The notes under the pieces: generated by a model
Databases searched by the model: none
What the model was told of the DNA's origin: nothing
What the model saw: only the letters and a program-made list of their open reading frames with translations
Part shown: positions 1,885 through 63,521 of the stretch, piece after piece
Position numbering within the stretch: position 1 is the stretch's first letter
Layout of the letters: each line of letters starts with the position of its first letter
Assembly: GCA_963829055.1 (NCBI GenBank)
Contig: CAWHHI010000005.1
Coordinates: 96,001-160,000, forward strand
Source: an uncultured Gemmatimonadaceae bacterium
GTDB taxonomy: Bacteria; Gemmatimonadota; Gemmatimonadetes; Gemmatimonadales; Gemmatimonadaceae
Direction: 5' to 3'
Length of the DNA stretch: 64,000 bases
Program-made: the position numbers and the translations under genes

Positions 1885-2904
1885 ATGGATACACACCGAA
1901 CACACACGTCGAAGGTTCTGAGCAGGGCGTCGGCCGTCATCACCTGGACGCTCGCCACGTGCGCGCTCGTCGCCTGTAGCTCCGGCGATCGTACGAACGG
2001 CGGCGACTCTGGAAGTGCCGCGGCGTCTCGCGCCAACGATTCGTTAGGCGGTGAGCGCACGCTCGTCGTCTTCAACGCCGGGAGTCTCGCGCTGCCGCTG
2101 CGCGCGGCGCTCGACAGCTTCGCCGCCCGCGAGCACGTGACGGTCCAGCAGGAGAACGCCGGCAGCATCGAGACGGCGCGCAAGCTGACCGAGCTGGGGA
2201 AGATCCCTGATCTCGTCGCCGTCGCCGACTTCGAGGTGATTCCGCTCCTGCTCGTGCCCGAGCACGCGACGTGGTACGCGAAGTTCGCGCACAACCGCAT
2301 GGTGCTCGCGTACGGCGACCGCTCGCGCGGCGCGGCGGAGATCAACACCGGGAACTGGTGGCAGGTGGTGACGCGGCCGGGCGTGCAGGTGGGCCGAGCG
2401 GATCCGAGTCTCGACCCTAACGGCTATCGCACGTTGCTCGTCTGGCAGTTGGCGGAGCGCTTCTACAAGCAGCCGGGCCTCGCGCAACGTCTGCTCGCGA
2501 CGGCGCCGCCGCGCAACGTCAGGCCCAAGGAGGCGGACCTCGTCGGGCTGCTGCAGGCGGGCGAGTTCGACTACATCTGGTCATACGAGTCGATCGCGCA
2601 GGGCATCGGGCTCAAATACGTGACGCTGCCGAAAGAGATCGACCTGAGCGCGGCGAGCGACTCGGCGGCGTATGCGGTGGCGTCGACGCGCGTCGCCGGC
2701 AAGACGCCGCGCGACTCGGTGACGATGCGCGGCCAGCCGATCGTCTACGCGTTCACGGTACCCACGCGCGCGCCGCACGCGGCGCTGGCGGCGAAGTTCG
2801 CGGCGTACCTCGCGTCGGAGGATGGCCGGCGGGTGCTGCGTGGCGCGAAGCTCGACGTGCTGGATCGGTATATCGTGGTGGGGACGGGAGCGCCGACGTT
2901 ATAG
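1885..2904 (+). CDS. Molybdate/tungstate ABC transporter substrate-binding lipoprotein (WtpA/ModA-like)
   Basis: FNAGSL, AGSIETARK, ADPSLDPNGYR, DYIWSYES and PIVYAFTVP motifs of WtpA-type binding proteins; lipobox LVAC. Confidence 0.85.
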   Translation: MDTHRTHTSKVLSRASAVITWTLATCALVACSSGDRTNGGDSGSAAASRANDSLGGERTLVVFNAGSLALPLRAALDSFAAREHVTVQQENAGSIETARKLTELGKIPDLVAVADFEVIPLLLVPEHATWYAKFAHNRMVLAYGDRSRGAAEINTGNWWQVVTRPGVQVGRADPSLDPNGYRTLLVWQLAERFYKQPGLAQRLLATAPPRNVRPKEADLVGLLQAGEFDYIWSYESIAQGIGLKYVTLPKEIDLSAASDSAAYAVASTRVAGKTPRDSVTMRGQPIVYAFTVPTRAPHAALAAKFAAYLASEDGRRVLRGAKLDVLDRYIVVGTGAPTL

Positions 2905-3112
2905 GCCGGAGGAAGGAGGCCAGCGAGGCTAGGAAGGAGGCCGTAGGAAGGAGGAGTAAAAGCACTGTCATCCCGAGGAGCGCCAGCGACGAGGGACCTT
3001 CTGTCATGGCATCGTAGCCAGGCCGGCCACCATGACGTTCGAGAGGTCCCTCGCTGGCGCTCGGGATGACAATGCTCCCCAGGCCTCCTCCTCCTCCTCC
3101 TTCCTCCTTCCT
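2903..3112. repeat. Family A palindromic element (GTCATCCCGAG...CTCGGGATGAC, 2967-3070) inside AGGAAGG/CCTTCCT arms
   Basis: About 100-bp imperfect hairpin between convergent genes, with purine-rich left and pyrimidine-rich right arms. Confidence 0.85.
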
Positions 3113-3945
3113 CATTCGAGCGCCGCGATGAGCTGGAACATCGGATTGTCCGGCGTGATCGCATAGCCATCCTCCACGCCCCAGACCAACGACAGCACCG
3201 CCTGCGCGAAAGCCCAGCGCGTGATCCGCTCACGGTCGAGCGATAGGCGCGACGAGAACACCCGCACTCGTCTTTCTATAGTCGCCGAGTCCGTGAAGAC
3301 CTCCGGCCGTTCGGCCGGATTGCGGAGTGAGGCGCCGAGCTCGTACTCGAGCTCACCGATCACGCCCTTGGGGTCGATCGCGACCCATCCGCGCTCGCGG
3401 TCGCGCAAGATGTTGTAGTGCTGAAGGTCGCCGTGCAGGAGCCGAGTGGGGCCTTGTGACTCGCAGAGATCGTCGTAGACGCGAGCGGCACGTCTGACGA
3501 GGGCTTCAGGAATCTGCGTGTCGCCAGTGGCCAGGTAGCGTGTGAACGCGCGACCCCAATCGGCCACGGTCGGACAGACCGCCGGAGGATTGCCCGGCGA
3601 CATGGACGCGATCACGTCCGCCAGGATGTTCGTGGCTTGGTCATCATCGCCCGTGCAGGCGAGCTCCGCGAGCGACGTTCCCGGCTCGAGTCGCTCGAGC
3701 AGCATGGCGCCATCCACGTGCTCGTACACGCGGACCACACCGCGACCCGCGAACGCGTCCAGCACCTCGCCCGAGCGCCACTCGTCGCCGCGCTGCTTCA
3801 CGACTTTGAGCACGACGGGCCGGTCGTCACGCCGACCGTAGCTGATCACGGAGCTCGGCGTCTCGAACGACTCGTCGACGATCACGCGCCAGTCACGCGC
3901 CAGCTCGGCGCCGCGGTCACTCGGATTGGGCATACTGGCCGTCAT
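3112..3945 (-). CDS. Aminoglycoside/hydroxyurea kinase, APH(6)-like
   Basis: VVLKV, AMLLERLEPG, LLHGDLQHYNIL and WVAIDPKGVIGE motifs. Confidence 0.85.
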   Translation of the reverse strand: MTASMPNPSDRGAELARDWRVIVDESFETPSSVISYGRRDDRPVVLKVVKQRGDEWRSGEVLDAFAGRGVVRVYEHVDGAMLLERLEPGTSLAELACTGDDDQATNILADVIASMSPGNPPAVCPTVADWGRAFTRYLATGDTQIPEALVRRAARVYDDLCESQGPTRLLHGDLQHYNILRDRERGWVAIDPKGVIGELEYELGASLRNPAERPEVFTDSATIERRVRVFSSRLSLDRERITRWAFAQAVLSLVWGVEDGYAITPDNPMFQLIAALE

Positions 3946-3959
3946 CGCTCGCTGGAATT

Positions 3960-62100: not shown

Positions 62101-62185
62101 CACGAACCCGTTCCAGACCACCTTCTCGCAAGCCGTCACGCCGTCGCTCGCGCAGTTCATCGCGACCCTCAACCTGACGTTCTGA
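59177..62185 (+). CDS. SusC/RagA-like TonB-dependent receptor (frameshifts)
   Basis: LDEVVITG, IRG.STI...[47 protein letters not shown] and WTDYTGLDPE; C-terminal F. Confidence 0.92.
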
Positions 62186-62187
62186 CC

Positions 62188-63521
62188 ATGCGGATTACAC
62201 AGAAGCGGGGCACGACCCCAGTGGCCAGCCGTTCGCGCGGGTGGCGATTACACACACGCTGCGTATCTTGCGTTGTTCGCCGGTACGCTCGCCGCCTGCG
62301 ATCAGATCACGAGCCTCGACCAGGAGGCTCCGAGCCGAGTCATCGCGACCGATCTGTATCAGCCGGAGAACGCGCAGCTCCTCGTCACCAGCGCCATCAG
62401 TGACTTCGAGTGCGCGCTCACGCAGTACATCGTCGCCGCCGGGCTCGTCGGCGATGAGCTGATCGACGCACAGCTTTCGCAGGCGGGTTGGGACTACGAC
62501 CGCCGCACGATCGTGCCCTCGCTCGCGGCCTACTCGACGGCCGGGTGCGGGTCCGCTCAGGTCCCCGGCTACTACACGCCACTCGCGATCGCGCGCGCGA
62601 CGGCGGACAAGATCACCACGGCACTCGAGGGATGGACGGACGCAGCAGGTGCCGAATCGCCAGCTCTCTCATCGCCACGGCGGCAGCGCACGCGGGATAC
62701 GCCCTCGTACTGCTCGGCGAGTCCAGTTGCAGCGCGGCAATCGACGGCGGACCAGAGCTCACGCCGGTGCAGGTCCTCACCGAGGCGGAATCGCGGTTCA
62801 CCAAGGCGATCACCGCGGCGCAGGCGGCTAATAACACGGACATCCTGAACATGGCACGTGTCGGGCGAGCACGCGCACGGGTCGATCTCAAGAAGTTCGC
62901 CGACGCGAAGACCGACGCCTCGCTCGTGCCGGACAGCTACGTGCATAACGCGACCTACTCGGCGGCGAATCGCCCGCCGTGAGAACCTCATTCAACACGC
63001 AGTTCTTCCGCGGCCTGTTCTCCTCCGTCGATCCGTCGTTCCGCAACCTGACGGTGGGTGGCGTTCCGGATACGCGAGTACCGGTGGTCGACGCGGGTGT
63101 GAACGGCCAGGACGGGCAGACGCGCATCTGGCGCACCACGAAGTACCCGTTGATTTCCTCGCCCATTCCGATCGCGAGTGGCGACGAAGCAATCCTGCTG
63201 ACGGCGGAGGCGGATCTCGAGGCCGGCAACCTCACGGCAGTGGTCGCGGGCATCAACAAGCTCCGCACGAAGTCGTCGCTCCCGCAGTACGCCGGCGGCA
63301 CGGCCGCGGAGGTGCGCGCGCAGTTGATCGACGAACGGCGCCGCGAGCTGTTCCTCGAGGGGCAGCGCTTCAACGACATCATTCGGTTCAACATTCCGCA
63401 GTCGCCGGCAGCGGGGACGCCGTTCCCGGTCAAGGGCGGCGTCTACGGGAACCAGATCTGCTTCCCGCTCCCGGACGTCGAACGCAACAACAATCCGACG
63501 TTAGGCGGCAAAACCAGCTAG
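62188..63521 (+). CDS. SusD/RagB-like lipoprotein (frameshifts)
   Basis: Lipobox LAAC, E..LL.AEA, INKLR and ERRRELFLEGQRFNDIIR. Confidence 0.88.

Follow-up and report, generated by a model that had tools for sequence, protein, structure and literature searches.

The 64,000-nucleotide stretch of DNA analyzed here, hereafter called the window, derives from an uncultured bacterium of the Gemmatimonadaceae and corresponds to positions 96001 to 160000 of contig C5 in genome G000, which comprises 7,784,024 bases in 20 contigs. Its genes, which encode among others a MacB-like permease, a cytochrome c peroxidase, an ABC ATPase and a tricorn-type protease, are strewn with a short non-palindromic word, CCTAACG or its reverse complement CGTTAGG, of which an initial annotation made by eye had counted 65 exact copies, 37 on the forward and 28 on the reverse strand. 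Counts and positions are both correct (table 1), as are the eight CCTAACA/TGTTAGG variants reported with them. Comparisons between genomes rich and poor in this word are based on G000, which belongs to genus g1 of family f1, and on relatives coded G001 and so forth.

Table 1. Copies of the heptamer CCTAACG (+) or CGTTAGG (-) along the window. Coordinates are window positions; 8-mer, heptamer extended to GCCTAACG; kept, identical letters in the best alignment of the relative.
Position	Strand	Form	Frame, stop or gene	Relatives
2042..2048	-	8-mer	TTA-GG frame on one side	
2416..2422	+	7-mer only	CCT-AAC (Pro-Asn)	kept G001, G002; CCGAACG in G004
5268..5274	-	8-mer		
5786..5792	-	7-mer only		
7164..7170	+	8-mer	MacB-like permease gene	CCCGGCG or CCGGGCG
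7627..7633	-	8-mer	TTA-GG (Leu-Gly)	kept G001, G002
8242..8248	-	8-mer	TTA-GG	kept G001, G002, G004, G006
9231..9237	-	8-mer		
10191..10197	+	8-mer		
11790..11796	+	8-mer		
13118..13124	-	8-mer	TTA-GG	kept G004
13907..13913	-	8-mer	TTA-GG	
14327..14333	-	7-mer only	TTA-GG	CGCTCGG in G004
14402..14408	-	8-mer	TTA-GG	
15059..15065	+	8-mer		
16364..16370	-	8-mer		
16561..16567	+	7-mer only		
16920..16926	+	7-mer only		
17940..17946	+	8-mer		
19391..19397	-	8-mer		kept G001, G002, G006
19622..19628	-	7-mer only		
20051..20057	+	8-mer	CTA-ACG (Leu-Thr)	
20729..20735	+	8-mer	CTA-ACG	
22633..22639	+	8-mer		kept G001, G002, G004, G005
23427..23433	+	8-mer		
23998..24004	+	7-mer only	CCT-AAC; cytochrome c peroxidase gene	kept G001-G004
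24839..24845	+	8-mer		
25775..25781	+	8-mer	TAA closes 128-codon open frame	
26139..26145	+	8-mer	CCT-AAC; strain polymorphism 26141 T>G, synonymous Pro (CCGAACG in runs X4, X2, X18; CCTAACG in run X1 and window)	
27361..27367	+	7-mer only	CCT-AAC; TonB-dependent receptor gene	
27537..27543	+	8-mer	CTA-ACG	kept G002
28670..28676	-	7-mer only	TAA stop on - strand	
28989..28995	+	8-mer	end of a - strand gene	kept G002
29918..29924	-	8-mer		kept G002
30745..30751	-	8-mer		
31555..31561	-	8-mer		
32684..32690	+	8-mer		kept G001, G003, G004
33428..33434	+	8-mer		kept G001 only
34343..34349	+	8-mer	GTT-AGG (Val-Arg)	
36687..36693	+	8-mer		
37285..37291	+	8-mer	TAA stop of ABC ATPase gene 36363-37289	
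39130..39136	+	8-mer	CCT-AAC	
39452..39458	+	7-mer only		
39713..39719	+	8-mer		
41180..41186	+	8-mer		
41716..41722	+	8-mer		CATAACG in G001, G002, G006
42908..42914	+	8-mer		kept G001, G002
43266..43272	-	8-mer		CGTCAGG in G001, G002, G006
43876..43882	+	8-mer		kept G001, G002, G004
45594..45600	-	8-mer		kept G001, G002, G006
47275..47281	-	7-mer only		kept G001, G002, G004, G006 and G014 (another genus)
48196..48202	+	8-mer		kept G001, G006
48594..48600	-	8-mer		
49407..49413	-	7-mer only	TAA stop of tricorn-type protease gene 49409-51406 (-)	
51073..51079	-	8-mer		
51211..51217	-	8-mer		kept G001, G002, G004
54063..54069	+	7-mer only	TTA-GG frame of X-Pro dipeptidyl-peptidase gene (-)	
55163..55169	-	7-mer only		
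55425..55431	+	8-mer	TAG stop of GntR-family gene 55426-56493 (-)	
56856..56862	-	8-mer		differ at 4-6 of 7 letters
57370..57376	+	8-mer	amino-acid permease gene	
57953..57959	+	7-mer only	CCT-AAC; amino-acid permease gene	kept G001, G002, G004
58520..58526	+	8-mer	CCT-AAC; amino-acid permease gene	kept G001, G002, G006
61320..61326	-	8-mer	TTA-GG	kept G001
63499..63505	-	8-mer		

A Hyper-Abundant Word

In 100 dinucleotide-preserving shuffles of the window the heptamer appeared 2.79 times on average (standard deviation 1.76, maximum 9), and none reached 65. The whole genome contains 6391 copies (3142 forward and 3249 reverse) on all 20 contigs, versus 891, 353, 249 and 720 expected under Markov models of order 0, 1, 2 and 3; the enrichment thus survives this null, and the zero-order value is consistent with the approximately seven copies per window estimated in the initial annotation. 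Models of order 4–5 approach the observed count because they contain the word itself, and masking the word in the background lowers the expectation to 151 copies at order 2 and 90 at order 3. Two of the earlier estimates need correction: GC content is 0.65–0.69 per 4-kb bin and ∼0.67 overall, not 69%, and 20 of the 85 CTAA/TTAG tetramers in the window, rather than about 11, lie outside the heptamer (12 after removal of the eight variants).

CCTAACG/CGTTAGG is the top 7-mer of the genome by z-score at order 2. Many of its copies are longer, as had been noticed: a G precedes the heptamer in 78% of the genomic copies and 50 of the 65 copies in the window read GCCTAACG, the full word, which differs from its reverse complement CGTTAGGC and occurs 5004 times in G000 versus 102 expected. 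C or A follows in 69% of the copies, and flanking information does not exceed 0.16 bit at any position except −1, which indicates that the word is not part of a longer repeat. It differs in this respect from repetitive extragenic palindromic (REP) elements and miniature inverted-repeat transposable elements (MITEs), since no sequence is conserved beyond its core. Three variants that deviate by one letter, GCCTAACA, GCATAACG and ACCTAACG, are also over-represented and have the same flank preferences as the word.

The word is confined neither to one contig nor to one assembly, given that the 8-mer is found 2501–5112 times in all seven genomes of genus g1, including the six other than G000, which are assembled in 260–1170 contigs each. 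Its density is one per 1.2 kb in G000 and one per 0.6–0.7 kb in samples of G014 and G190.

Constraint on DNA and Not on Protein

That the constraint acts on DNA rather than protein, as had been proposed from the window, is borne out by shuffling synonymous codons within genes: 4880 confidently called genes (4.9 Mb) contain 3661 copies, whereas 10 such codon-preserving shuffles yielded 263–307 (284 ± 12). The word is written mostly by rare synonymous codons. Proline in the context Pro-Asn-G.. is encoded by CCT in 62% of cases versus 7.7% overall, and leucine in the context.CG-Leu-Gly by TTA in 37.5% versus 1.5% overall, with the result that 1466 of the 2430 TTA codons of the genome (60%) lie inside the word, together with 22% of the CTA codons; genes for tRNA-Leu with anticodons UAA and UAG are both present.

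The occurrence of the word in different reading frames also extends to the whole genome, where it lies in all four open frames and supplies stop codons in the other two. Because 1-base assembly indels split genes, the calls of our gene finder span 69–73% of the genome, and counts of frame and coding status are approximate; with a confident call on both sides, 751 copies are in the frame xCG-TTA-GGx, 516 in CCT-AAC, 279 in CTA-ACG and 191 in GTT-AGG. As many as 525 of the 6879 called genes end within the word, including 284 of the 860 that have TAA stops. The five stop codons previously pointed out in the window hold up: TAA is read directly at 25777 and 37287, and reverse complements of TTA (28672 and 49409) and of CTA (55426) supply the others, each stop closing 105–734 open codons. 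A frameshifting insertion of seven letters is ruled out, since the local coding frame is identical on both sides of the word. A role in providing off-frame ("ambush") stops was rejected by reasoning only, because any sequence bearing TAA or TAG would do, leaving the eight fixed letters unexplained.

Could the word be an artefact of sequencing chemistry, or a by-product of codon or peptide bias or of fragmented repeat elements? The assembly does contain 1-base indels and many split genes. Extra letters are present in the window at 22377, 22671 and 27145 when compared with the contigs of three to four of four independent runs, and genes for TonB-dependent receptors, a tricorn-type protease, SusD and an M1 peptidase (identified by Pfam) are split into overlapping frames (for example 25968–27185/27070–28446, 58907–62185 and 49409–52299), probably by assembly indels rather than as pseudogenes. 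The explanation has nevertheless a negligible probability: the frame is the same across the word, dozens of the 201 genomes surveyed in the family are rich in it in differently fragmented assemblies, orthologous sites are shared with short-contig assemblies, the synonymous shuffles fall far below the observed count and the flanks are not conserved beyond one letter. Among 40 listed of the 284 differences between the window and the contigs of independent runs, one falls inside a word (26141 T>G), a comparison that alone is no proof of every word site.

Orientation and Spacing

The absence of strand polarity claimed for the window holds for the genome, in which 3293 of 6371 neighboring copies (0.517) have the same orientation. 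The relation of orientation to GC skew varies in sign among seven contigs of 0.57–1.25 Mb, and orientation is balanced also in samples of G061, G151 and G190. Apparent strand runs in genus g51 were a listing effect, the fetched sequence containing 26 forward and 25 reverse copies in one case and 30 and 32 in the other.

This bears on the likeness of the word to Chi and to the FtsK-orienting polar (KOPS) and SpoIIIE recognition (SRS) sequences, which are equally eight-letter, non-palindromic, over-represented and lineage-specific and are read by DNA-processing motors. Their replication-linked polarity is, however, absent from the word, and no extra FtsK-like gene is present in rich genomes. A non-polar relative of Chi that marks broken DNA as self for an enzyme of the RecBCD or AddAB type, in both orientations and every few kilobases, would agree with the length, asymmetry and abundance of the word, with its even spacing and restriction to a species group and with its absence from foreign-looking DNA; we consider it very unlikely, because replichore polarity, the defining property of Chi, is lacking and the 25- to 70-fold enrichment, together with the use of the rarest codons, goes far beyond what is known of Chi sites.

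Spacing is more even than in a Poisson process. In G000, gaps shorter than 200 bp are found at 0.22–0.61 of the Poisson expectation, those of 400–1600 bp at 1.14–1.32 and those of 2.4–10 kb at 0.74–0.86, a distribution that fits a signal required once per DNA segment. Three stretches of 31–50 kb at contig ends (G000:C6:5440–55038, G000:C6:591808–623330 and G000:C11:1–44055) are free of the word. They encode housekeeping genes (trp, aro, glutamine synthetase) and a second FtsK and are probably foreign or mis-joined DNA of another organism, thereby providing an internal negative control.

Distribution among Relatives

In agreement with the lineage specificity suggested before, many genera of family f1 show enrichment, an exception in the rest of the phylum. 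Its density varies continuously among the 201 genomes of the family, from ∼0.001 to 1.3 per kb, with g1, g9, g43, g51, g52, g58, g65 and g73 among the rich genera. The spread within a genus can be wide, as shown by G115 with 66 copies versus 3244–4141 in four congeners (G062, G152, G183 and G209), by G032 with 173 versus 1991 in G174 and by G075 with 1100 versus 7821 in G190; within g1, G004 has 2861 copies and G005 has 5112. Among 201 genomes sampled across the phylum, g102 of family f2 is the only enriched genus outside the family (181–1061 copies), with weak enrichment in G030 of family f3; no genome among the 62 sampled from families f4–f12 has more than 70 copies. (Of note, G013, G048, G094, G254, G281 and G350 are single word-poor or intermediate entries of these tallies, on which no conclusion rests.) Samples of G014, G061, G151 and G190 contain the same unpolarized word as G000, and no other hyper-abundant 7-mer was found in small samples of the word-poor G018 (120 kb), G008 (60 kb), G030 (40 kb) and G115 (23 kb).

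The closest named relatives by RpoB are Gemmatimonadaceae, Gemmatimonas and metagenome-assembled genomes of Gemmatimonadales, with 74–90% identity. A quick RpoB tree, supported only by the Shimodaira–Hasegawa-like approximate likelihood ratio test, joins g1 and G014 with the word-poor G017 in a cluster of poor resolution (support 88), compatible both with one origin of the word followed by loss and with several origins.

Conservation and Gain of Sites

In the best alignments with seven relatives (71–80% DNA identity), 57 of the 113 window sites covered are identical, compared with 13–26% of control 7-mers, the proportion being 18 of 26 and 19 of 28 sites in the two nearest relatives. The pattern of conservation is all-or-none: among orthologous 7-mers, counted over overlapping loci and in both directions, 56% are identical, 12% have one difference and 9% two, versus 24.5%, 32% and 24% of the controls. 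Transversions (G<->T and A<->C) occur together with transitions among the single differences from the word, and at many sites three or more letters are different. The rpoB gene has no copy in 18 word-poor genomes (G013 being one of them), two to three in three genomes of g1 and 10 in G014. At nine of the 11 sites an invariant peptide is recoded synonymously, with Ala-Leu-Gly changing CTC to TTA, Pro-Asn-Gly CCG to CCT and Gly-Leu-Thr CTC to CTA, and some sites are patchily common to g1 and G014, a situation that implies a strong directional force acting on whole words.

Such a force might be direct selection on each site, were the word bound by an abundant chromosome-organizing or other DNA-binding protein. 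Even spacing, lack of polarity, conservation between species and a word common to all rich genera would suit a binding site of this kind. Selection distributed over ∼6000 sites would however be very weak for each of them, and yet codon usage is overridden even in rpoB; moreover, a 20- to 60-fold variation of density within genera agrees poorly with a central architectural function and no candidate protein was found, so that we regard this explanation as distinctly unlikely.

Search for a Reader

Eleven protein families were examined as possible readers of the word (IntI, Vsr, the C5, N6_N4, N6, D12 and Eco57I methyltransferases, ComEC, ComEA, FtsK and ComP_DUS), and none of them separates rich from poor genomes. 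Vsr (PF03852) occurs in none of eight rich genomes and in three poor ones only. The C5 methyltransferase (PF00145) is likewise found in none of eight rich genomes, N6_N4 in none and N6_Mtase in one of the seven g1 genomes, D12 in two of five rich genomes, and an Eco57I-type protein of ∼1070 amino acids in five of five rich and five of five poor genomes. Proteins with this type IIG-like methyltransferase domain, of ∼1020–1130 amino acids, are located at G001:C159:37463–38320 and G008:C2:949629 and on G005:C183, G014:C73, G017:C13, G016:C23 and G115:C24. ComEC and the ComEA-type HHH_3 domain are present in all 31 genomes. FtsK is found once per genome in the 29 genomes with a match, the only second copy being that in the foreign-looking island of G000, and ComP_DUS (PF16732) matched none of five rich genomes and none of 14 control genomes, so that this search has no positive control.

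These results are relevant to the highly iterated palindrome (HIP1) of cyanobacteria, which resembles the word in being an octamer found about once per kb, within genes, against codon usage and conserved between species, and which has been linked in the literature to methyltransferases. HIP1 is palindromic whereas the word is not, and no methyltransferase tested tracks the word. The methylation-linked drive considered in the initial annotation is consequently weakened. In more general terms, methylation or short-patch mismatch repair, as in the HIP1 proposal or with Vsr/Dcm, could drive mutations that convert near-words into words. The CpG-decay variant CCTAACA is 10–12 times over expectation, in line with such a process, and the Eco57I-type methyltransferase found in all five rich genomes could also be taken in its favor, were it not present in all five poor genomes. 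The scarcity of the other enzymes in rich genomes, the transversions among single differences and the many sites that are off by three or more letters argue for the contrary, and a repair bias acting on single mismatches does not predict the deficit of close pairs; the drive is thus highly improbable.

Identity with the Integron Core Site

The letters GCCTAAC/GTTAGGC of the word are those of the R-box of attC sites in this lineage, a point that the initial annotation missed. This box, or core site, has the consensus RYYYAAC/GTTRRRY and the integrase cuts within it, according to a published account (PMC5027507). The handful of copies present in word-poor relatives from the order are grouped on a few contigs, with a common orientation and at intervals of 400–750 bp, and each grouped copy opens an imperfect bulged hairpin of ∼90 nt that ends in TGTTAGGC; these copies are textbook attC sites of cassette arrays. 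Large chromosomal arrays with very uniform attC sites of 90–93 nt are present in word-poor relatives of f2 (G021:C95:1–24000, G021:C43, G021:C80, G019:C3 and G023:C113), and G021:C80 also contains an integrase fragment at 6419–7300. A search of Rfam found nothing in either the window or the cassette arrays.

G000 possesses its own intI at C20:208041–208958 on the reverse strand (265.7 bits versus a cut-off of 265), within an integron region (C20:188000–209000) that contains about ten attC-like sites in 20 kb with the common sequence GCCTAACGCC..AAGTTGA.CTGC. The sites beside intI have the heptamer in both arms, and a separate pair of attC-like hairpins lies at C20:119251–119506, 90 kb away. 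IntI exceeds the model cut-off in 18 of the 31 genomes searched, of which some are rich and most are word-poor, and two to three further copies are present in the word-poor G115. It is full length in all five high-quality rich genomes, and it was not found in the rich G183 and G209 (95% complete), nor as a full gene in G002, G004 and G014. Being common to rich and poor genomes alike, IntI does not account for which lineages are rich.

The genome-wide copies are not attC sites. Except for a few near intI and those at C20:119251–119506, they have no L-box partner and no imperfect hairpin of 57–141 nt with a paired second arm (R'', L'', L', R'). Convergent pairs in G000 number 184 versus 164 divergent, with no excess at any folding threshold, and only eight clusters have at least three core copies within 120 bp; scattered attC sites were therefore rejected. 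Unlike the cassette arrays of G019, G021 and G023, the copies are dispersed over 20 contigs in random orientation. Boundaries of synteny do not coincide with words (one of 73 lies within 10 bp, versus 2.2% at random), the modest excess at 25–100 bp being due to few gene ends counted in several genomes. Derivation of the relatives' cassettes from G000-like DNA was also rejected, as no near-identical counterpart exists and blastn gave 10 weak hits with 67–87% identity.

It is nonetheless very unlikely that the identity of the word with the R-box arose by chance, because it concerns one specific 8-mer out of ∼33,000. This identity points to the integrase or a relative as the reader, or else to a bias of uptake or transfer tuned to cassettes. 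In the first case IntI or a related protein would recognize the word as a double-stranded half-site, in the manner of attI or attG, and the copies would be recombination or landing sites, either for cassettes or for the exchange of segments of the chromosome. The exact R-box letters, the textbook attC sites of word-poor relatives, the word in both arms of the sites adjoining intI in G000 and the full-length IntI of the high-quality rich genomes are all consistent with this. So is the reported insertion of cassettes by IntI at attG, a double-stranded genomic site with a GWT core; in that report, however, attG sites have GWT only and not the full R-box (bioRxiv 10.1101/2022.09.11.507474). Against it stand the frequent IntI of word-poor genomes and its lack of detection in G183 and G209, the missing excess of attC-like pairs, the position of breakpoints off the words and the absence from G000 of near-identical cassettes of relatives. 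Nearly all 6391 copies are in fact solitary, located in ordinary genes far from intI and produced by point changes; landing sites inside genes would be expected to be harmful, and no route is evident from recombination to new copies arising by point change. On balance, an integrase reading the word appears unlikely.

A Possible Self Tag for DNA Transfer

DNA uptake sequences (DUS) of Neisseriaceae and uptake signal sequences (USS) of Pasteurellaceae share with our word a short non-palindromic form, presence on both strands and in several frames at about one copy per kb, lack of replichore polarity, occurrence within a restricted group of related genera, conservation above that of the surroundings and the company of genes for DNA import machinery. 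A density of ∼1 per kb is in the range of both. These uptake-like features, combined with the failed tests of Chi/KOPS, HIP1, Vsr drive, attC and repeats, favor a tag of the DUS/USS type, and we lean tentatively toward the possibility that GCCTAACG would be a DNA self tag of this Gemmatimonadaceae lineage spread by biased DNA transfer. A putative reader protein would recognize the eight letters on DNA passing between kin cells, at uptake or soon after; fragments bearing the word would be favored, and alleles lacking it would be replaced by homologous recombination. Over time, this bias would write the word about once per kb where it is cheap to do so, namely in synonymous positions, in stop codons and at residues that vary, and the shared letters of word and R-box may tie the reader to the capture of integron cassettes. 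We directly observe the enrichment of the word, its independence of protein and codon, lack of polarity, even spacing, conserved sites with parallel gain, taxonomic range and R-box identity; the force behind them would be a bias of transfer or recombination instead of selection exerted directly at individual sites. One and the same word is used in every rich genus examined (G000, G014, G061, G151 and G190), as expected of such a tag, while ComEC and HHH_3 in all 31 genomes permit uptake and do not discriminate.

Several points weigh against a self tag. Our full-text literature search yielded no report of competence or uptake sequences in this phylum. No candidate reader discriminates among the families searched, with ComP_DUS missing from the five rich genomes in a search devoid of positive control, and the equal presence of ComEC and ComEA in word-poor genomes means that nothing related to competence sets the rich lineages apart. 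Word pairs in inverted orientation, of the terminator type found in Neisseria, are not enriched, comparing convergent with divergent pairs at any folding threshold. With eight letters and no flanking signal the word is also shorter than DUS or USS, from which it further differs in being built from the rarest codons and identical to the integron core. The deficit of short gaps was measured in G000 only and, judged by eye, looks less pronounced in 60 kb sampled from G190. The three large word-free islands, with their housekeeping genes and probable foreign or mis-joined origin, belong to this list, and word-free gaps of 7–16 kb hold ordinary metabolic or housekeeping genes, one including a plasmid-type replication initiator domain, so that absence of the word from acquired DNA is not clearly shown for these gaps. 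Finally, uptake by itself does not explain why the word and the R-box are identical.

The latter difficulty would disappear if the reader were a receptor of uptake or transfer tuned to the integron core, with which these lineages would harvest cassettes while the copies in their own genes accumulate as a passive by-product. Natural transformation is reported to feed cassettes to chromosomal integrons (PMC12614218). The attC sites of G000, having the word in both arms, would be captured by such a receptor, and kin DNA with the word may be taken up and recombined more often. The scheme, which we consider doubtful, would explain why the word equals the R-box, why only some lineages are flooded even if the attC core is shared, and why the word behaves like DUS or USS.

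In line with the initial annotation, our full-text searches, whose coverage did not extend to subscription journals, found no published description of the word, the matches listed for its letters having unrelated titles and being presumably primers or constructs; among the papers listed on integrons of Gemmatimonadota, which by title and abstract are resistome studies or reviews, there is no relevant description either.

Other Repeats in the Window

Two further repeated features are present in the window. Contig depth in four metagenome runs is 10- to 60-fold higher over the segment at 21069–21869, a mosaic of dispersed repeats between two genes that gives 119 BLAST hits within G000. An imperfect palindromic repeat of ∼130 nt, TGTCATTCCGAGCGG ... 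CCGCTCGGAATGACA, is located at 36363–36510 and again at 28522–28662, with a folding energy of −64.6 kcal/mol (z −10). The two copies have 393 and 344 BLAST hits in G000; in G003 and G004 the hits number in the dozens. This repeat is a MITE- or REP-like element, and it accounts for the enriched 8- and 9-mers of the genome.

Implications

Few hyper-abundant genomic words are known, DUS, USS, HIP1 and Chi among them, and each has led to a DNA-handling system. The present one overrides a strong codon bias in essential genes, across many genera of a family of soil bacteria that is widespread and little studied, and the contrasts of density between close relatives offer a natural experiment for identifying its reader. 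In practice, the word also serves as a clean flag for foreign DNA and binning errors when genomes of these bacteria are assembled. If the reader were the integrase, the chromosome would contain thousands of potential recombination sites; if it were a receptor tuned to cassettes, the word would become the first signal of the uptake type beyond Proteobacteria and would join transformation directly to integrons at the level of mechanism. Should the word instead be the self tag that we tentatively favor, sequence-biased gene exchange would be extended to a new phylum and tied to the capture of cassettes.

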